A stretch of DNA of 64,000 bases, from assembly GCA_963712005.1 (NCBI GenBank), contig CAVQGK010000024.1, positions 728,600-792,599 of the forward strand, written 5' to 3'. Positions 23,576-40,080 of this stretch are shown here, in pieces. A model generated the notes under the pieces. The model was not told the origin of the DNA. It did not search any database and was given only the letters and a program-made list of their open reading frames with translations. The position numbers and the translations under genes were made by a program. The first letter of the stretch is position 1, and the number at the start of each line of letters is the position of its first letter. The stretch comes from an uncultured Chloroflexia bacterium (GTDB lineage Bacteria > Chloroflexota > Ktedonobacteria > Ktedonobacterales > JADMIN01).

Positions 23576-24541
23576 CTAGGCCGGGAACGCAAGCTTGCGA
23601 TACTTCTCGGCAATCTCATACCAGGCTTCTTCCGATAAGCCCAGCTTTTCACGCAGCTCATCCATCGAAACACCCGCGCGCAACTGGCGCACCGCGAAGA
23701 TATCGCGCAGCAGTTGCAGGGTCACGCGCTTATCGAGGTTGGCGCGCTTGACGGCGGCGGCGAGCACATAGTTCATGTTGCGATCCGTACACTCGAAGAG
23801 GCGCTCGCGTGGCTGGTAACGCTCAACATAGCGCTCAAAGACATCCGTCCACTCCGCTGGCAGGGCCATACGCCGCTCGCGCCGCCGCTTCGCCTGGCCA
23901 GGGAAATGCACTTCGAGCGCGGGTTCCTCCGGGTCCGAGAGGTCCACATGGCGCAATGCGACCGCCATCAACTCCTCTTTCTTCAGCCCAGTCGCCAGCA
24001 GCGTCATCACCAGCAACTGACAGCGCGGGTCCGCCTCGGCGGCCTGCTCCAGCCGGGCTATCTCATCCTCGAAGAGCAGTTCTGGAAGCGGCGGCGCTGG
24101 ACGAGTCAGCACGATACGCTGCGAAGGGTCATCCGCGAGCACCTGCTCCTTCGCCAGCCAGCCGAAAAAATTCTTCAGGAAGGTCGCGCGCCGCGCCATC
24201 GTCTTCGGCGCCGGTTGTGTAGCGCGATCCCAGCGCAAATGGCCGAGCCAGCCCGCCAGCGACTCCTGCGTGATCGTGCGCAATGGTGTCTCGCGCCCCA
24301 GAAACTCAGTCAACAGGCGCAAATCCGAGAGAAAGCAGGTGATCGTATACACCGAGTGGTCAGTGCGGCGCAGATACTCCTGATACGGCAACGCGCACGC
24401 GCCCAACACCGATGTTGCGGAGAGCGTGGGAACGACCACCACAGGCTCTGGCTTCGGGCTGGCCACCGACGCGGCGGCGTCGGGGAAGAACAGGCTGGGC
24501 TGCTCCACCGAGTCATCAGATGTTTTGTCTGTGTCGGGCAT
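23576..24541 (-). CDS. tyrosine-recombinase-like protein with degenerate catalytic residues
   Basis: SAM-like N-terminal domain (TITCFLSDLRLLTEFL) and integrase-fold C-terminus. Box I reads ATGLKKEEL (R to K). Box II reads LQLLRDIFAV instead of HxLRHTFA. ATG at 24541; the upstream part of ORF 23576..24937 looks non-coding. Confidence 0.6.
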   Translation of the reverse strand: MPDTDKTSDDSVEQPSLFFPDAAASVASPKPEPVVVVPTLSATSVLGACALPYQEYLRRTDHSVYTITCFLSDLRLLTEFLGRETPLRTITQESLAGWLGHLRWDRATQPAPKTMARRATFLKNFFGWLAKEQVLADDPSQRIVLTRPAPPLPELLFEDEIARLEQAAEADPRCQLLVMTLLATGLKKEELMAVALRHVDLSDPEEPALEVHFPGQAKRRRERRMALPAEWTDVFERYVERYQPRERLFECTDRNMNYVLAAAVKRANLDKRVTLQLLRDIFAVRQLRAGVSMDELREKLGLSEEAWYEIAEKYRKLAFPA

Positions 24542-24761
24542 AGCTGGCCTCGCGTTGATGTATCCCGGAAAAATTGGACTCCCGCGCCCCAGTATGGCCC
24601 ATTCGGGCGCTGTTTGCAAGCCAACGGGACCCGCCATAGGATATACTGGCCGTTGCGCCGCCCGGCAGCATCCGCCTGGCCGGATGGGGTCGCCGTAAAG
24701 TATGTTCGACATCGGTTGCACATGAGTTGTCATCACGATACACGATAGAGGAGCGTACTCT

Positions 24762-27073
24762 GTGTCTGACACGACCGCCGCTTCCGGCGATTTTCTCTCG
24801 CTTGACGAGCTCCAGTTTCCCGAGACACTAGAGTCTACCGAGGTGGCGCGCGTCGTCGCCGTTGAACTGAAACTGAGGCCGACGCAGACACTCGCGACTC
24901 TCACCCTGCTCGACGACGGCAACACCGTCCCATTCATTGCGCGCTACCGCAAGGAAGCGACGGGCAATCTCGACGAGGTGCAGATTCAGGCCATCGGCGA
25001 CCGCGCCGCTGCGTTGCGTGCGCTCCATGCGCGCAAACACGATGTGCTGCGCCTCATCGCCGAGCAGGGGAAGCTCACCCGCGAGTTGGCCGACGCCACC
25101 ATCGCCGCCGCCACGCTGCAAGCCGTGGAAGACCTCTATTTGCCATATCGCCAGAAGCGAAAGACGCGCGCCAGCATGGCACGCGAGCGCGGATTGCAGC
25201 CGCTCGCCGACCTGATTCTGCGGCAGGAGCGCATTCCCGGCCCGGCAGAGCAGGCGCGCATCGCCGCGGCAGAGCCGTTCGTGGATGCCGAGAAAGGGGT
25301 GGATGATGTCGCGTCAGCCCTGGCTGGGGCGCGCGATATCTGCGCCGAGACGATCATGGAGGATGCGACGGTACGCGGCGAGGTGCGCGACACAGTTCTT
25401 CAAAGAGGGTGCGCTGGGGGCGAAACTCACCGTGGATGCGGAGAAAGCGGCGGAGAAAGACCCGCGCGGCGTCTACCGCATGTACTACGAGTTTCACGAG
25501 CCGGTTCCGCGTTTGGTCCCGCACCGCATTCTCGCGCTCAATCGCGCCGAGCGTGAAGATGTGCTGCGCGTCTCGGTGGATGTGCCATTCGAGCGCGCCG
25601 AGCCACTGATTCACAACCACTACCAGCCCGACCGGCGCTCGCCCTTCGCCGAAGAGTTGGAGACCGCCATCAGTGACGGCTACCGCCGCCTGCTCGCGCC
25701 CGCGCTCGAACGTGAGGTGCGCGCCGAGTTGACGCGCCAGGCCGAAGAACACGCCATCGGCGTTTTCGCGACCAATCTGCGTAACTTGCTCTTGCAGCCG
25801 CCGCTCCGTGGCGAGCGTGTGCTCGGCCTCGACCCTGGTTTCCGCACCGGCTGTAAGGTGGCCGTGGTAGACGAAACCGGCAAGCCCATCGACTCCACCA
25901 CCATCTATCCCCACGCGCCCCAGGAGCGCTGGAGCGAGGCGAAGGCGATCCTCAAGGCGCTGATCGCCACCCATCGCGTCGGCGTGATTGCCATTGGCAA
26001 CGGCACCGCCTCGCGCGAGACCGAGCAGCTCGCCGCCGAGGTGATTGCTGAGCTGGAGAAGCTGGGCACGCCCACTGGCTCGCTGGGCTATGTCATGGTC
26101 AACGAGGCGGGCGCATCGGTCTATTCGGCATCCGAGGTGGCCCGGCAGGAGTTTCCCACGAAAGACGCCACCGAACGCGGTACCATCTCGATTGCGCGGC
26201 GGCTGCAAGACCCACTGGCCGAGCTGGTGAAGATCGATCCCAAGGCGATTGGCGTTGGCCTGTATCAGCATGATGTGGATCAGCGCGCGCTGGCGACCGC
26301 CCTGGACCGTATCGTGGACTCCTGCGTGAACTTCGCCGGTGTGGATCTCAACTCCGCCTCCTCGCAACTGCTGCGCCACGTCTCTGGCATCACGACACGC
26401 ATCGCCGACAACATCGTCGCCTGGCGCGCCGAACACGGCTCATTTGCCAGCCGCCAGCAACTGCTCAAGGTCTCTGGCCTCGGTCCCGCCACCTTCGTCC
26501 AGGCGGCAGGCTTCCTGAAGGTACCTGGGGGCAAGGAGCCGCTCGACAACACCTTTATTCACCCCGAGAGCTACGACGCCACGCGCGCAGTGCTGAAGAC
26601 GCTGCCGGGATCGACCACTGAGCGCGCCAGTCGGCCGGGTGCGCGCGTGGCGGATGCTGATCGGCATGAACTCGCGAGGCGCGGGCGCGCAGGCGGCCAT
26701 CGCAGCGCTGGCAGGCGAGGTCAACGTCGGCGTCCCAACGCTGGCCGACATCCTAGAAAACCTGGAAAAGCCGGGACTCGACCCGCGCGATAGCCTGCCG
26801 AAACCGATTCTGCGCCAGGACGTGCTGAAGCTGGAAGACCTGAAAGAGGGGATGGTGCTGCAAGGCACGGTGCGCAATGTCGTCGACTTCGGCGCGTTTG
26901 TGGATATTGGCGTCAAGCAGGATGGCCTCGTGCATGTCTCGGAGATGGCCGACCGCTTTGTCCGCGATCCTCTGACCGTAGTACAGGTTGGGCAGGTCGT
27001 GCAGGTGCGCGTGCTCGCAGTGGATATTGGGCGCGGGCGCGTCCAGTTGAGTATGCGCAATGTTGAAGGCTGA
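24762..27073 (+). pseudogene. tex: Tex (S1-domain transcription accessory protein), 2 frameshifts
   Basis: Three collinear ORFs: 24762..25556 (VPFIARYRKEATGNLDEVQI), 25285..26793 (YqgF/HhH region: GLDPGFRTGCKVAVVD, IAIGNGTASRETE) and 26639..27073 (S1 domain: GTVRNVVDFGAFVDIGVKQDGLVHVSE). The frames switch near 25385-25400 and near 26640-26690. Confidence 0.85.
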
Positions 27074-28605: not shown

Positions 28606-28965
28606 ACCAATTAAAAAGAGTTCGTCGTGAGGGACGAGTATCCGTGCTACGGCGAGACAGCGAGCCGGGGTAGGTGTAAGCCCGGCAGGCTGGCGCGCGG
28701 AGAAGCCACCCTCAGGCCTAGCGGTGCAATCGCCGCCCGGCCGCGACGCGGGACGAACGCCCACCGTGGCCAGTAGCACCCGCCGGTAGCTCCCCGTTAC
28801 CTAAGAGCAGGGCATCGAGCCATCCGCTCCGTGCCCGGAAAGAGTGGAGAGCAACAGTTGCGCGCTAGCCATGCGCACGCACCGTAGTTCTCAAGCAGGG
28901 TGGTACCACGGGAACCGACTTTTTCGCTCCCGCCCCGAGCAAGGCGCTCGCGGCGGGTGTTTTTT
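28606..28965 (+). promoter_or_regulatory. T-box leader (tRNA-sensing riboswitch), Ala GCC specifier
   Basis: Stem I base TGAGGG 28628-33 pairs with CCCTCA 28709-14. AGTA lies on the 5' side (28637-40). The distal hairpin is GCCGGG-gtaggtgtaag-CCCGGC. The specifier loop reads GAA-GCC-A (GCC at 28705-07). F-box CCGTTA is at 28794-99. The T-box sequence AAGCAGGGTGGTACCACGG is at 28892-28910, with UGGU matching an A73 discriminator. A terminator hairpin plus T7 follows. Confidence 0.85.
28928..28965 (+). terminator. T-box attenuator terminator
   Basis: CCCGCC-CCGAGC, loop, GCTCG-C-GGCGGG, followed by TGTTTTTTT. Confidence 0.8.
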
Positions 28966-29119
28966 TATCTCTGGCCGCATAAGCAATATCTGGCAGCGAG
29001 CGCCCCAGCCTCGCACACTGCGCCTTTCCTGTTGGCAGCCAGTCCGGCGTTTCCCGCCGGACGACGAACTCTGCCCATTTTCATCGCCTGGGTTGGCCCC
29101 AGGGAAGGAGAGCAGTCGC

Positions 29120-30484
29120 ATGAACGATTTCAGTAAGCCGGGACTCTCATCGCCGGAAATCACCCGGCGCTATCTCGCGTATTTCCGCGAGCGCGGTCAC
29201 CTGGCGATCGCGGGCGAGCCACTCACCGCGTCGGAAAGCACCCTGTTCGTGATCGCGGGGATGCAGCCGCTGCTACCATGGCTGCGCGGCCAGACACCAC
29301 CGCCCGCGCCACGCCTGACGGCGATCCAGCGCTGCCTGCGCACGGACGACATGGAAGCCCTCGGAACCAATGGACGCACGCTCAGCAGCTTCAACATGCT
29401 CGGCAACTGGTCCATCGGCGATTACGGCAAACGGGAGGCGATTGGCTTTGCGGACGAGCTGATGAACCTGCTCGGCGTTGATCGCTCGAACGTCTGGGTG
29501 ACGGTCTTTGGCGGGGAACCAGCCTCAGGCCTGCCACCAGACGAGGAGACGGTCGCGGAATGGCGGCGGGTTGGTCAGCCGGAGGAGCGCATTGTGCCAC
29601 TGGGTCCCGTCGACAACTTCTGGACCATGTACGGCCCTGGACCCTGCGGTCCAGATACAGAAATGTTCTTGGATCGCGGCGAGGCGGTGGGCTGTGGTCT
29701 GCCAACCTGCCGTCCGGGCTGCTCGTGCGAGCGCTTCCTGGAGTTCTGGAACCTCGTCTTCATCGAATACGAGTGGCTGCCCGATGGGAGCTACGCGCCC
29801 CTGCCGCTGCGTAGCGTGGATACCGGCATGGGGTTGGAGCGCATCGCGGCGGTGCTCCAGCACAAGATGACACTCTTCGAGACTGACCTGTTCGCGGGCG
29901 CGCACCAGCGTCTGGCGGACCTCGCGCCAGCCGAGGACGATACGCCAGAGCGGCAGCGCGCGCGCCGAGTGATTGTCGACGCGGTACGGTCGGCGCTCTA
30001 CATCAGCCTCGCGGACGTCCTTCCCCGACCGGATGGTCGTGGCTACGTCATCCGGCGGCTGATTCGCCGGGCGGCTCGGCAGGGGCGCATTCTTGGATTA
30101 GAGCGGCCATTCCTCGGCGAGTTGGTATCACCAATAATCGAGCGCGGTGAGGACTTGTTCTCGCCTGACGAGCGCCAGCGCGCGCCATACATTGCAACGT
30201 TGCTGACCGACGAAGAGCGCCGTTTCCAGCATGTGTTGACCACTGGGCTGCGCCTGCTGGATCGGATGAAGCCCGATGCGGGAGGCATCATCTCGGGAGA
30301 GCAGCTGTTCCGGCTGCATGCGGAGCGTGGCTTCCCGGCGGACCTGGCGGCGGAAATTCTCGCCGAACGCGGCATAGCCGTTGACTGGTCCGGCTTCGAG
30401 GCGGCGATGGAGCGCCATCAGACCATCAGCCGGGTCAGCGCGACCACTCGATTCGGCGCGAACGAGCAATTGGTCGGGGAATGA
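29120..30484 (+). CDS. truncated alanine--tRNA ligase (catalytic plus tRNA-recognition domains only, 454 aa)
   Basis: AlaRS motifs FNMLGNWSIGDYGKREAI, FWNLVFIEYE and DTGMGLERIAAVLQ. ATG at 29120 follows GGAAGGAG. The gene ends where bacterial AlaRS normally begins its editing domain. The upstream part of ORF 28844..30484 overlaps the T-box and is not coding. Confidence 0.85.
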   Translation: MNDFSKPGLSSPEITRRYLAYFRERGHLAIAGEPLTASESTLFVIAGMQPLLPWLRGQTPPPAPRLTAIQRCLRTDDMEALGTNGRTLSSFNMLGNWSIGDYGKREAIGFADELMNLLGVDRSNVWVTVFGGEPASGLPPDEETVAEWRRVGQPEERIVPLGPVDNFWTMYGPGPCGPDTEMFLDRGEAVGCGLPTCRPGCSCERFLEFWNLVFIEYEWLPDGSYAPLPLRSVDTGMGLERIAAVLQHKMTLFETDLFAGAHQRLADLAPAEDDTPERQRARRVIVDAVRSALYISLADVLPRPDGRGYVIRRLIRRAARQGRILGLERPFLGELVSPIIERGEDLFSPDERQRAPYIATLLTDEERRFQHVLTTGLRLLDRMKPDAGGIISGEQLFRLHAERGFPADLAAEILAERGIAVDWSGFEAAMERHQTISRVSATTRFGANEQLVGE

Positions 30485-30561: not shown

Positions 30562-31923
30562 TCAGCGACCGGGCATATCGGCGACCGGCGCATCGTTGAA
30601 CTGAAGCGTCATCGAGCCGAGTGGCGGCACGCTCTGCAGCAGCGACTGGCTATTCGCCGGGAGCGAGATGAGACCCATGCGCATCTTCAGCAACAGAATC
30701 CGCTCGACCGACTGATCGATGCGCGCCTTGGTGAGGCTGCCGTTGTTGAGCGCACTCTTGAGCGCCGAGATCATCGCCCGCATCTGCGAGGCATTCCAGG
30801 GACCAAGCAACATATCGCAGCCAGCCTCAACTGCCATGACGCCAGCCTGTGGCATACTCCATTTGTTCGAGATGCCATCCATGTAAAGCGCATCGGTCAT
30901 CACGACACCATTAAAGCCAAGCTCATTGCGCAAGACACCCGTGATGATGTTCGGAGACAACTCCGCAGGCAGCACCGGATCCAGGGCGGGCATCAGCAGG
31001 TCGGTGGTCATCACCATCTGAACCTTCCCGGCATCGATCATTGCGCGGTAGGGCGCCAGCTCCACCGATTCGATCTGATCGCGCGTGCGGTTGATAACTG
31101 GCAGGCTCAGGTGCGCGTCTTCCAGAGCGTCACCCAGTCCAGGGAAGTGCTTCAACGTGCCCACCACGCCGTTATCCTGCAAGCCGTCGAGGTATGCGCC
31201 CGCCATTTTGGTGACGGAGTCGGCTGTCGAGCCATAGGTGCGGCACAGCAGATCCCGGCCATTGACCAGCTTCACATCCACATCGGGAGCAAGGTCAACA
31301 TTGAAGCCGAGGGCCGTCATATCCTGCGCCATCTTGGCGCCCTGCTGATAGGCGTAGGTCGTCGAGCCAGTGGCGCCAATCTGCGGCGCGCCCGGATGGG
31401 GGCCGTAGATTTGTGTCAGCCGGTCAACGCAGCCGCCCTCTTCATCCACCGTCACCAGCAGGGGGATTTTGACATGCGCCTGGGAGGCCGCGATCAACGC
31501 CTGAGTCTGCTTGGCGTCGTGCATACTGAAGGCGTAGAGGATAATGCCGCCTGCGTGCATCTGCTCGATCATCGCCGCATTGTTCGCGTTGAAGTCAGTG
31601 CCGACATACTCGGCAACGAAAAGCTGGCCCAGCTCCTCATCGAGCGACATCTTACTGATGATCTGATCGGCATATTCGGCAATCGTCTGTACGCGCTGGC
31701 GATCATAGTGTCGCGGTATGAGAAGGGTCGAGTTCGTGGATGTAGGGCCGCGCTGATCGGCTTGAGCAAGAATGGCTTTCTCAGTAAGTGCTATAGGAGC
31801 ATTCGATCCGCATGCGTTCATGACAAAGATAATGGCCAGTAAGAATACCGACGCCGCCAGGTGAACGATCTGCATCCGGCCCAAAGGACGCCTGGACTGG
31901 TGTGAAACTGCACCCTGCCCCAT
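30562..31923 (-). CDS. glycoside hydrolase family 3 (NagZ-like beta-N-acetylhexosaminidase) lipoprotein
   Basis: KHFPGLGDA, GFNGVVMTDAL, and lipobox VMNACGSN. Confidence 0.85.
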   Translation of the reverse strand: MGQGAVSHQSRRPLGRMQIVHLAASVFLLAIIFVMNACGSNAPIALTEKAILAQADQRGPTSTNSTLLIPRHYDRQRVQTIAEYADQIISKMSLDEELGQLFVAEYVGTDFNANNAAMIEQMHAGGIILYAFSMHDAKQTQALIAASQAHVKIPLLVTVDEEGGCVDRLTQIYGPHPGAPQIGATGSTTYAYQQGAKMAQDMTALGFNVDLAPDVDVKLVNGRDLLCRTYGSTADSVTKMAGAYLDGLQDNGVVGTLKHFPGLGDALEDAHLSLPVINRTRDQIESVELAPYRAMIDAGKVQMVMTTDLLMPALDPVLPAELSPNIITGVLRNELGFNGVVMTDALYMDGISNKWSMPQAGVMAVEAGCDMLLGPWNASQMRAMISALKSALNNGSLTKARIDQSVERILLLKMRMGLISLPANSQSLLQSVPPLGSMTLQFNDAPVADMPGR

Positions 31924-37679: not shown

Positions 37680-38000
37680 ATGGCGCGGATGGTACATTGT
37701 GTCAAACTGGGCCGGGAGCTGCCAGGGCTGGAGAAACCACCTGTCCCCGGCGAGCTTGGCCAGCGCATCTATGACAACGTCTCTCAGGAGGCCTGGGAGA
37801 TGTGGCAGGAACATTCTCGCCTGCTCATCAACCATTATGGGCTGAATCTAGCCGACCCCGACGCTCGCCAGATTCTCCGCCAGGAGATGGAAAAGTTCTT
37901 CTTCGGCGAGGATGCGGCGATGCCTGAGGGCTGGGTTCCTGAAGGGGCTGGCGGCGCAAAGGGCAAGGGCGGCGCACCTGCCGCGCCTGCGAAGAAATGA
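37680..38000 (+). CDS. YggX-family Fe(II)-trafficking / oxidative-damage protection protein
   Basis: VHCVKLGRELPGLEKPPVPGELGQRIYDNVSQEAWEMWQEHSRLLINHYGLNL matches the YggX pattern, with an added Gly/Ala/Lys tail. Confidence 0.8.
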   Translation: MARMVHCVKLGRELPGLEKPPVPGELGQRIYDNVSQEAWEMWQEHSRLLINHYGLNLADPDARQILRQEMEKFFFGEDAAMPEGWVPEGAGGAKGKGGAPAAPAKK

Positions 38001-39466
38001 GAGCAGCGGGCGCAATCCTGTTGGTGGCGTGCTACGAGTTAGGCCACCAGCCGCTCAGCCTTGCCTCGCCTCTGGCGGTTCTGCGCCGAGCGGGGTTCAT
38101 GCCGGTTGCGGTCGATACCTCCGTCACCGAGCTATCCGATAACGCCATCGCGGCAGCCCAACTGGTCGCCATCTCCGCGCCGATGCATACCGCGCTACGG
38201 CTTGGCACACACGTCGCCGCGCGTGTTCGTTCGCTCAATCCCACCGCCCACATCTGCTTCTACGGCCTCTACGCCACCCTCAATGCCGAATATCTGCTGC
38301 GTGACGTTGCTGACTCGATCATCGGCGGCGAGTATGAGGAGGCGCTGCTGGCGCTGGCCGAGTCTCTAGAGACTTCCAACGGCAGCGCGCCCGAAGCGAT
38401 TCCTGGTGTGCGCACCCGCGACCACGATGCGTCGCCGGTTTTGCGGCGGCTGGAGTATGTCGCGCCGGAACGTCGTTCGCTGCCCGCGCCGCAGTCCTAT
38501 GCCTATCTGGTGCGCGGCGACGAGATGGTTCCGGCGGGCTATGTCGAGGCGACGCGCGGCTGCCTGCACACCTGCGCCCACTGCCCGATCACACCGGTCT
38601 ACGGCGGACGCTTCTTCGCGATTCCGCGCCCGCTCGTGCTGGAGGATATCCGCGCCCAGGTGCGCGCTGGCGTCGGGCATATCACCTTCGGCGATCCCGA
38701 CTTCCTCAACGGCCCACGTCACTCGCTGGAGATCGTCCGCACGATGCACGCCGAATTTCCACATGTGACCTTCGACGCGACAATCAAAGTCGAGCATATT
38801 CTCGAGCGCCGTGAGGTTTTCCCTGAGCTGGCCGCGCTCGGCTGCGCCTTCGTCGTCTCAGCGGTCGAGTCGCTGAGCGAGGGGGTACTACGCCACCTGA
38901 TGAAGGGCCACAGCCGCGCCGACGTGGCCGAGGCGCTGGATATCCTGGACGACGCGGGCATCCCCATGCGCCCCACCTTCGTCGCCTTCACCCCATGGAC
39001 AACCGCCAGTGACTACCTCGATGTGCTGGACTTCATCGCCGAACACGGGCTGGTGGAGCATGTTGACCCGATCCAGTATGCTATCCGCCTGCTCGTGCCG
39101 CCCAGCTCCGCCCTGCTGGATGACCCCGATGGGCGAGATTGGCTCGGTCCACTGGATGAAGAGGCGCTCAGTTACACCTGGCAGCATCCCGACCCACGTA
39201 TGGATGCATTACAGCGCGAGGTGCAGGCGTTGGTCGAGCGCGCCGCCAACCAGCGCGAACCAATCGCGGTGACGTTCGCCGCCATCCGTCGCCTGGCATC
39301 GGAGCGGCTGGACGCGCGGGAACCAGCACTAGTGGGCGCTGGCATCTCTGACGCCACTGGCACATTGCGACGGTCGCGGCGACCTGTCCCCCACCTGAGC
39401 GAACCGTGGTTCTGCTGAGCGGAACCCACCGCGGACCAGTTCGGTCCCCTCATCCCCAAGCTGTAA
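37997..39466 (+). CDS. B12-binding-domain radical SAM protein with C-U-A-E-P tail (putative selenoprotein; TGA 39416-39418 read as Sec)
   Basis: CX3CX2C motif (RGCLHTCAHC). After ...EPWFC the TGA is followed in frame by GCG GAA CCC (A-E-P) and 13 more sense codons, up to TAA at 39464-39466. The start ATG overlaps the yggX-like stop (ATGA). Confidence 0.7.
39419..39450 (+). promoter_or_regulatory. candidate bacterial SECIS hairpins immediately 3' of the UGA
   Basis: GCGG-aaccca-CCGC (39419-32) and GGACC-aguuc-GGUCC (39433-47). The second loop lies 20-24 nt after the UGA and contains GU. Confidence 0.4.
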
Positions 39467-39569
39467 GCGACGCAGCTATTATCGTCGGTTGCACGTGATG
39501 TCTATTTCACCGTGTGATACGCTGGAATAGCGCAAGTCATGTCGTGCATTCCCACTTGAGAGGCAGCAC

Positions 39570-39800
39570 ATGAGCCATATCATCGAACTTACTGACGAAC
39601 AATATGAAACATTGCGCCAGGTCGCCGCGCGGGACCAGGAGACACCTGAGCAGCTTCTTGAGAGAATGGTCAATGCGCTTACAGTGATCCAGGGCACTGT
39701 TTACTACACCGATGACGACCTTTTACGCGCTCTCGGAGCCGACGACGAGGAGTTGGCTGACTTGGCAAAGCTCGAAACGGCAGCCCATGTCGACGAGTGA
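39570..39800 (+). CDS. putative antitoxin (76 aa, acidic)
   Basis: Small acidic ORF that overlaps the downstream RelE/ParE-like gene by 14 nt. Confidence 0.5.
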   Translation: MSHIIELTDEQYETLRQVAARDQETPEQLLERMVNALTVIQGTVYYTDDDLLRALGADDEELADLAKLETAAHVDE

Positions 39801-40080
39801 GCTACTGCCAGACTTTCACCGCGACTACGGAAAGCTGACCGAGGCGCAGAAGAAAGCCTTCCGTCTGGCCGTAAAGCAATTTGTCATCGATCTGCGACGC
39901 GGCTCGTTTCGTGGTAGTTTGCGTATCAAGCCCATGCAGAATAGTCCCAACATCTTCGAGATGACGTGGGAAGGGGAGGATGGGCGAGCCACCTTCGATT
40001 ACGGCCCAGAACAACGGCCCGGAGAGAAGCCTATCCGTTGGCGGCGTATCGGCGGCCATGAGATATTCGACCGCCCATGA
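39787..40080 (+). CDS. RelE/ParE-superfamily toxin-like protein
   Basis: 97 aa. The pattern FHRDYGKLTEAQKKAF...IFEMTWEGEDGRATFDYG...IRWRRIGGHEIF resembles RelE/ParE. Confidence 0.55.
   Translation: MSTSELLPDFHRDYGKLTEAQKKAFRLAVKQFVIDLRRGSFRGSLRIKPMQNSPNIFEMTWEGEDGRATFDYGPEQRPGEKPIRWRRIGGHEIFDRP

Follow-up and report, generated by a model that had tools for sequence, protein, structure and literature searches.

The NCBIfam family NF040546, "CUAEP/CCAEP-tail radical SAM (seleno)protein", comprises radical S-adenosylmethionine (SAM) proteins with a vicinal cysteine-selenocysteine or cysteine-cysteine pair in the C-terminal tail. Full-text searches for its name and accession found a single sentence, in a 2022 preprint by Haft, which refers to the protein as an uncharacterised CU-motif protein among the selenoproteins under discussion; the same preprint notes that CU motifs cluster in metal- or metalloid-handling proteins. 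A 2026 review of prokaryotic selenoproteins (PMC13188914) lists other radical SAM selenoproteins, for example the GxxU family (TIGR04167) and TrsS (NF045646), without mention of the accession NF040546. The gene considered here belongs to this family and lies in a 64-kb stretch of DNA (contig CAVQGK010000024.1; the whole stretch is called the window) from an uncultured member of the Chloroflexota. The locus is best described, with a probability of about 0.85, as a two-gene operon in a genome of Ktedonobacterales type, consisting of yggX and the gene for a CUAEP-tail radical SAM selenoprotein.

The nearest characterised homolog is ArsL, which takes part in arsinothricin biosynthesis. This enzyme, a radical SAM protein with a CxxxCxxC motif, cleaves SAM to methylthioadenosine (MTA) and a 3-amino-3-carboxypropyl radical (bioRxiv 10.1101/2024.02.01.577332; 10.64898/2026.04.29.721666). 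According to the same two reports, neither of which mentions the use of cobalamin, cysteines in the ArsL tail bind As(III) and are needed for formation of the C-As bond, not for SAM cleavage or Fe-S content.

In the window, the radical SAM gene can be read directly as an open reading frame (ORF) of 473 amino acids (37997..39418, + strand) that closes with ...EPWFC. The last codons are ...CCG TGG TTC TGC TGA, with TGC at 39413-39415 and TGA at 39416-39418. Past this TGA the same frame stays open for exactly 15 sense codons, GCG GAA CCC ACC GCG GAC CAG TTC GGT CCC CTC ATC CCC AAG CTG (AEPTADQFGPLIPKL), and then meets TAA at 39464-39466. When the TGA is read as selenocysteine (Sec), the product has 489 residues and ends in ...PHLSEPWF-C-U-AEPTADQFGPLIPKL. 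A preliminary description, made from the letters of the window, had given the same ORF limits, TGA position and open frame; it had also proposed the family name, and both the name and the membership have turned out to be real.

Comparison of the read-through protein with NF040546, made with U written as C, gave 715.7 bits (cutoff 500; E = 2.3e-215). Residues 7-483 align with profile positions 1-467 of 468, and since the alignment reaches position 467 the tail belongs to the match; this is the hidden Markov model (HMM) comparison against NCBIfam that had been proposed as a check. Beside the HMM score, the other two traits by which a member is recognised are present: the C-[U/C]-A-E-P motif (39413-39427) and the CxxxCxxC core. 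The window protein shares the core and the WFC-[U/C]-AEP tail with the family at large, and nothing essential sets it apart. TIGR04167 and TrsS are separate families that carry Sec in other motifs, and neither is among the NCBIfam matches of the window protein. Relatives from metagenome-assembled genomes of Ktedonobacterales, at 91-94% identity, bear the NF040546 name in GenBank; the exact window protein has no record in public assemblies.

Judged by the sequence comparison, the UGA of the radical SAM gene is a selenocysteine codon, and NCBI already curates the family as one of selenoproteins. Because NCBIfam and the 2022 preprint already describe the family as a selenoprotein, the finding is not new in kind. 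The gene had been called a hidden selenoprotein; it is indeed concealed from gene callers, but it had not escaped the curators. What is added here is the comparative case for recoding, a selenocysteine insertion sequence (SECIS) supported by covariation, the conserved coupling with yggX, and an alignment of the tail with that of ArsL that offers a mechanistic lead.

The case for recoding comes from the DNA of 80 species-level genomes of at least seven phyla, namely Chloroflexota (Ktedonobacterales, Thermomicrobiales and others), Gemmatimonadota, Planctomycetota, Methylomirabilota, Acidobacteriota, Latescibacterota and Myxococcota; relatives were confirmed in at least 586 species-level genomes. 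The equivalent of codon 474 is TGA in 65 of the 80 genomes (Sec-type genes) and TGC or TGT in the other 15 (Cys-type genes), and A-E-P follows in frame in every one of them. Within the tail, the residues L, E, W, F, C, [U/C], A, E and P are invariant across 65 Sec-type and 14 Cys-type genes, the fifteenth Cys-type locus being too short to score. The longer pattern P-[RH]-L-[TS]-E-x-W-F-C-[U/C]-A-E-P-T-x-x-Q is common to both types. In close relatives of the window gene the tail shows synonymous changes, and the stop is kept 15 codons past the UGA. Thus the gene shows what is looked for in a bacterial selenoprotein, an in-frame UGA aligned with cysteine of homologs and followed by conserved coding sequence. 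TGA is not a general sense codon in these organisms, since yggX in the window terminates with it, as do 24 of the 65 Sec-type genes at their true stop.

Database entries reflect the recoding poorly. Of the 120 nearest clusters, about 100 end exactly at ...WFC, including entries that NCBI names "(seleno)protein", and every full-length cluster among these 120 reads ...WFC-C-AEP. Two checks proposed from the window alone were whether homologs carry CCAEP or C-TGA-AEP at the same position and whether the codons past the TGA are conserved as protein, and gene callers had been expected to truncate the product; the comparison bears out all three.

Recoding of UGA in bacteria is associated with a SECIS stem-loop shortly past the codon. 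In Escherichia coli fdhF the stem-loop begins about 11-12 nt past the UGA and carries an apical-loop G-U about 23-25 nt from the U. For the window gene, RNAfold gives two hairpins immediately past the UGA, GCGG/CCGC (39419-39432) and GGACC-AGUUC-GGUCC (39433-39447). Both had been pointed out in the preliminary description, and only the second is conserved in homologs; the first was discarded, as the aligned homologs do not keep its pairing. In the consensus, the stem pairs 39431-39437 with 39443-39449, so that the hairpin begins 12 nt past the UGA. The window version has a 5-bp core (39433-39437/39443-39447), a C-C mismatch, an outer G-C pair and the apical loop AGUUC (39438-39442). Its spacing and the position of the loop G-U match those of the fdhF element, from which it differs in a shorter stem (5-7 bp), in showing no conserved bulged U and in a loop of the form AGUUN.

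Covariation provides the evidence that this hairpin is maintained. With the alignment of the 65 Sec-type genes numbered from the U of the UGA, the stem occupies columns 16-22 and 28-34 and the loop columns 23-27; the loop consensus is AGUUN, and C22, G24 and G28 are invariant. Paired bases fill 85.9% of the hairpin cells, and six of the seven pairs show compensatory changes. Cells in which both sides have changed number 76, compared with 28.5 ± 4.1 in shuffles, none of 500 of which reached 76. If the partner strand is slid by 1-3 columns, the number drops to 9-13, which is 6-8 times lower. Unguided RNAalifold recovered the 5-bp core with compensatory changes in four of its five pairs. The same columns are paired in only 46% of the cells in the Cys-type genes (n = 14), where residues +9 and +10 are not conserved, unlike in Sec-type genes.

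Residues +6 and +9 of the Sec-type tail swap jointly (D..G, G..D, D..D, G..G, S..A) with pairing retained. Since they covary in such a way that the bases still pair, the covariation runs counter to protein conservation. Tail residues +5 to +10 of the Sec-type proteins are, on this alignment, dictated by the SECIS stem, so part of what looks like a conserved tail in Sec-type proteins is an RNA constraint and not a protein one. The hairpin at 39431-39449 thus behaves as a bacterial SECIS and would let SelB deliver Sec-tRNA to the UGA. At the sequence level, then, the SECIS-like stem-loop that was to be looked for shortly past the UGA, one of the checks suggested at the outset, is present and backed by covariation and RNAalifold. 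No Rfam model matches the hairpin in the window, and a permissive Rfam search of 39380-39520 returned only chance matches to small nucleolar RNAs on the wrong strand. The layout of UGA, spacer and AGUUN was also sought elsewhere in the window and the homologous loci; five weak matches, in frames that look non-coding, were found and none was convincing.

The upstream partner is YggX. In enterobacteria yggX adjoins mutY. The 106-residue ORF of the window matches the family over the full length of both models (PF04362, 134.4 bits, cutoff 27; NF003817, 140.2 bits, cutoff 74), and differs from other members in its operon with a radical SAM gene and in a C-terminal extension. This extension, residues 89-106 (37944-37997), is rich in Gly, Ala and Lys and lies past the end of both models; its final Lys-Lys codons meet the beginning of the radical SAM gene in a conserved AAGAAATGA junction. 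The ATGA overlap is an arrangement typical of translational coupling. In 45 of 81 loci, those of the 80 genomes and the window, yggX immediately precedes the radical SAM gene on the same strand, and an [A/G]TGA overlap, mostly as AAGAAATGA, occurs in 29 of the 42 YggX-linked loci that could be scored. The YggX identity of the upstream gene and the overlap at 37997-38000, both proposed earlier from the window, are therefore correct, and the coupling extends well beyond this genome. YggX accompanies Sec-type and Cys-type genes alike in several phyla, and across the 81 loci the type does not correlate with its presence. It is absent from the loci of Thermomicrobiales, Planctomycetota and Methylomirabilota.

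ArsL gives the second-best NCBIfam match of the window protein (NF040542, 310.4 bits), below the cutoff of 450; ArsL-like representatives score 477-656 on this model. These representatives align end to end with the window protein at 33-38% identity over about 400 residues. Both proteins have an N-terminal domain, a CxxxCxxC core and a vicinal Cys pair (Cys-Sec in the window protein) near the C-terminus, and in the alignment the CC of the ArsL tail falls under the C[C/U] of the CUAEP family. The tails themselves differ: ArsL has RCCLKC (CCxxC) and the window protein WFCUAEP, so that only the vicinal pair is shared and the third tail cysteine is absent from the window protein. The CUAEP family also has about 55 extra residues, a helix and a variable linker, before the tail, and it uses Sec. 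The length and sequence of the linker (residues 439-462) differ even between close relatives. No arsM or other ars genes lie near the window gene, unlike the setting of ArsL.

The clade around these proteins is broad. Among 1.84 billion representatives, 463 clusters (50% identity) match at E <= 1e-30. The best 150 of the 463 include 38 truncated at W[FY]C, 40 ending in CCAEP, a few with CCAAP, CCAMP or CCSEP, and four with an ArsL tail, KRCC[IL]KC. The variant tails occur in distant relatives: CCAAP in P0216, P0223, P0247, P0248 and P0254, CCAMP in P0172, and CCSEP in P0146 and P0180. Three distant relatives were scored on NF040546, and all fell below its cutoff (P0216, 333 bits; P0172, 434 bits; P0229, 418 bits, the last with a normal CCAEP tail), so the curated model misses part of the clade.

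The fold was approached through a natural Cys-type homolog, P0033, for which AlphaFold2 gave a model with a mean predicted local distance difference test (pLDDT) score of 89.4 and a predicted TM-score (pTM) of 0.89, the linker and tail being less confident. This model matches AprD4 (E = 2.9e-20, TM-score 0.68-0.72), TsrM, MgmA, OxsB, CysS and TokK in the PDB over the full length. AprD4, the best structural match, has a B12-type domain but is not known to use cobalamin. A PDB search by sequence yielded distant B12-radical SAM matches only and no ArsL structure. In Pfam, the window protein matches PF04055 (Radical_SAM) with 47.5 bits, and PF02310 (B12-binding) stays below threshold (29.4 bits, cutoff 32.1). 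The label "B12-binding" that had been attached to the ORF is therefore sub-threshold in Pfam, but it is supported by the predicted fold of the homolog, which has the class B radical SAM architecture of a B12-domain-type N-terminal domain and a radical SAM barrel.

The relation to ArsL suggests how the tail might work. The variable linker would let the invariant tail swing the Cys-Sec pair into the active site. There the pair would hold a soft atom of the substrate (metalloid or chalcogen) for reaction with the radical derived from SAM. Such a tethered, substrate-holding arm, as in ArsL, is put forward tentatively, at somewhat less than an even chance, on the strength of the homology to ArsL, the aligned CC of the two tails, the role of the ArsL tail and the model of the homolog. 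By the same analogy, the radical in the CUAEP enzyme may be 3-amino-3-carboxypropyl rather than 5'-deoxyadenosyl. In these aerobes YggX would supply or protect iron for the [4Fe-4S] cluster, which is sensitive to oxygen; given its known role and the conserved coupling, it most likely serves the cluster of the radical SAM enzyme.

Some observations weigh against recoding, others against the proposed role of the tail. The folding energy of the RNA past the UGA is ordinary (z = -0.85; 31 of 200 shuffles fold as well). None of selA, selB, selD and tRNA-Sec was found in the 64-kb window or the 80 loci, searched with ARAGORN and Rfam (window), tblastn with E. coli SelA, SelB and SelD (window and 80 loci) and ARAGORN (60 loci); the sole tblastn matches were two weak ones to pyridoxal phosphate (PLP) enzymes in a single locus (L029). 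As regards the tail, conserved arsenic, selenium or metalloid genes were not found near the gene, whose neighbours other than YggX are lineage-specific, and the CUAEP tail offers two chalcogen ligands where ArsL has three. As the window holds none of the Sec machinery, the decoding of Sec in this particular genome is inferred. The trait does exist in the lineage, since Ktedonobacter racemifer, Sphaerobacter thermophilus, Thermomicrobium roseum and Nitrolancetus are SelD+ SelA+ SelB+, with 5, 9, 5 and 8 selenoproteins, respectively (Peng et al. 2016, PMC5029168). The lack of Sec machinery in the window would suit a UGA read through without selenium, by a near-cognate Cys or Trp tRNA, or a recent nonsense mutation that left a pseudogene in this genome. 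Both are very improbable, because 65 species-level genomes from different phyla all have this TGA, the covarying hairpin at SECIS spacing is limited to TGA genes, TGA otherwise serves as a stop, and the cultured members of the lineage possess SelA, SelB and SelD. Nor is there much to commend a genuine stop, with a protein ending in ...WFC and a conserved non-coding RNA element, terminator or regulator, behind it. Gene callers do terminate the ORF at this TGA, and the hairpin could pass for a terminator stem, but it has no T-run after it and the + strand showed no site resembling a terminator. All of the 65 TGA genes continue in frame with an unchanged A-E-P, the same as in the Cys-type proteins, the tail has synonymous substitutions and NF040546 aligns through it, which leaves this explanation a negligible chance.

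For the role of the Cys-Sec pair, which the preliminary description had called redox-active, the main alternative to a substrate-holding arm is a redox centre, in which the pair would alternate between selenenylsulfide and selenol/thiol and either carry electrons to or from the active site or resolve an intermediate. Mammalian thioredoxin reductase has such a design, with a vicinal Cys-Sec (GCUG) on a flexible C-terminal arm. The likeness of its adjacent pair to that of the CUAEP tail is one of analogy, since thioredoxin reductase has an unrelated flavoprotein fold and its motif stands two residues from the end, compared with 16 in the CUAEP protein. Of the 80 closest genomes, 65 have Sec in place of Cys, a strong preference such as is typical for redox catalysis, and in Gemmatimonadales (four loci) a bacilliredoxin-type oxidoreductase (PF06491, 202.9 bits) is encoded just downstream. 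However, the bacilliredoxin link is limited to one order, other lineages conserve neither a thioredoxin nor a reductase as partner, and ArsL uses the equivalent tail to bind the substrate atom, not to transfer electrons. A redox centre is accordingly regarded as possible but rather unlikely. It is less probable still, and by a good deal, that the tail pair, perhaps together with C283, provides the ligands of an auxiliary iron or Fe-S site whose iron is delivered by YggX. The translational coupling with an iron-trafficking protein and the invariance of C283 among close relatives would fit such a site; ArsL and the more distant members of the family do not, however, conserve C283, two ligands from the tail would not suffice for a cluster, and removal of the ArsL tail leaves the Fe/S content unchanged. 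The tethered arm that holds a substrate atom is the model carried forward here.

The features of the locus are collected in Table 1.

Table 1. Positions in the window of the yggX gene, the radical SAM selenoprotein gene and their elements.
Feature	Position	Strand	Basis or remark
yggX (Fe(2+)-trafficking / oxidative-damage protection protein), 106 aa	37680..38000	+	PF04362, NF003817
ATGA overlap	37997..38000	+	radical SAM ATG 37997-37999 on yggX TGA 37998-38000
Full CUAEP-tail radical SAM selenoprotein gene (predicted)	37997..39466	+	489 codons including Sec474, then TAA; NF040546 and translation
N-terminal B12-binding-like (Rossmann-type) domain	38018..38356 (residues about 8-120)	+	PF02310 below cutoff; AlphaFold2 model of homolog
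Radical SAM core	38546..38968 (residues 184-324)	+	PF04055, 47.5 bits
CxxxCxxC motif, C189-LHT-C193-AH-C196, [4Fe-4S] ligands	38561..38584	+	invariant in all alignments, ArsL relatives included
Variable linker	39311..39382 (residues 439-462)	+	no conserved columns; pLDDT 62-69 in homolog model
Tail motif P-x-P-H-L-S-E-P-W-F-C-U-A-E-P	39383..39427 (residues 463-477)	+	conserved across homologs
Vicinal Cys473 (TGC) and Sec474 (TGA), recoding site	39413..39418	+	TGA or TGC/TGT codon across homologs; aligns with ArsL CC
First hairpin GCGG/CCGC, probably incidental	39419..39432	+	RNAfold; not conserved in homologs
SECIS-like hairpin	39431..39449	+	covariation, RNAalifold
True stop TAA	39464..39466	+	stop also 15 codons downstream in closest relatives

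Genes other than yggX accompany the radical SAM gene in particular lineages. A formyltransferase-domain protein is encoded divergently from yggX in 29 loci, and an ATP-grasp protein of the L-amino-acid-ligase type downstream in 20; an arginase-family protein is found near the gene in some Thermomicrobiales. Neither these three nor the neighbours in Planctomycetota and Gemmatimonadales described next occur in the window. In the Planctomycetota (L078:6891-9945, and similarly L076, L077 and L079), the radical SAM gene has downstream of it a DUF169 gene, one for a 162-residue protein that has no Pfam match and one for a PLP-dependent decarboxylase of the ornithine/diaminopimelate/arginine type. 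The bacilliredoxin-type gene of Gemmatimonadales (L059:11448-11879, with L063 and L080 in the cluster of four loci) lies 50-140 nt downstream of the radical SAM gene, a weak hint of redox cycling of the tail thiol and selenol. A tRNA-Gly(GCC)-tRNA-Cys(GCA) pair is found directly upstream of yggX and the radical SAM gene in L024:9392-9541 (Gemmatimonadota) and L036:8012-8168 (Latescibacterota), and a tRNA-Cys about 1.1 kb downstream of the radical SAM gene in L026:12563-12634 (Anaerolineales). The proximity of tRNA-Cys in these three loci may be coincidence.

The surroundings of the operon in the window are ordinary and include genes for an amine oxidase, a GT87 membrane protein, an amidohydrolase, a glutamine-synthetase-like protein, NfeD/SPFH, RtcB and superoxide dismutase. 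A scan of the operon for promoters and terminators gave nothing informative near the gene ends on the + strand. Just downstream, two small overlapping ORFs of 76 and 122 amino acids (39570-39800 and 39712-40080, + strand), both lacking a Pfam match, have a layout that looks like a putative toxin-antitoxin pair; promoter-like hexamers stand at 39556-39583 and 39658-39685. Farther upstream, an alanyl-tRNA synthetase-like ORF (28844-30484, + strand) covers only positions 1-435 of 552 of tRNA-synt_2c and abuts a glycosyl hydrolase family 3 gene (30562-31923, - strand). This ORF may be an alaS that has been truncated or frameshifted, or else a short paralog. A phage-integrase-family ORF (23576-24937, - strand) adjoins a Tex-like ORF (25285-26793, + strand) in which the central region of Tex is missing its N-terminal part, and this junction may mark the boundary of an integrated element.

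For annotation, the consequence is that the gene should end at 39466 and codon 474 be read as Sec. Most database copies, truncated at ...WFC, lose the tail, where the protein is most strongly conserved. With relatives in at least 586 species-level genomes the family is large. Its members from aerobic soil phyla mostly contain Sec, and ArsL, the nearest relative of the family, forms a C-As bond through unusual radical chemistry. It is conceivable, though on present evidence improbable, that the CUAEP enzymes as a group are ArsL-like and transfer the 3-amino-3-carboxypropyl group of SAM to a metalloid held by the tail, or to Se or S of the tail itself, with YggX as a dedicated iron partner. If so, the neighbouring ATP-grasp L-amino-acid ligase, formyltransferase and PLP decarboxylase would process an amino-acid-like product, and the family would represent a widespread, so far unseen route to carbon-heteroatom bonds in aerobic soil bacteria.

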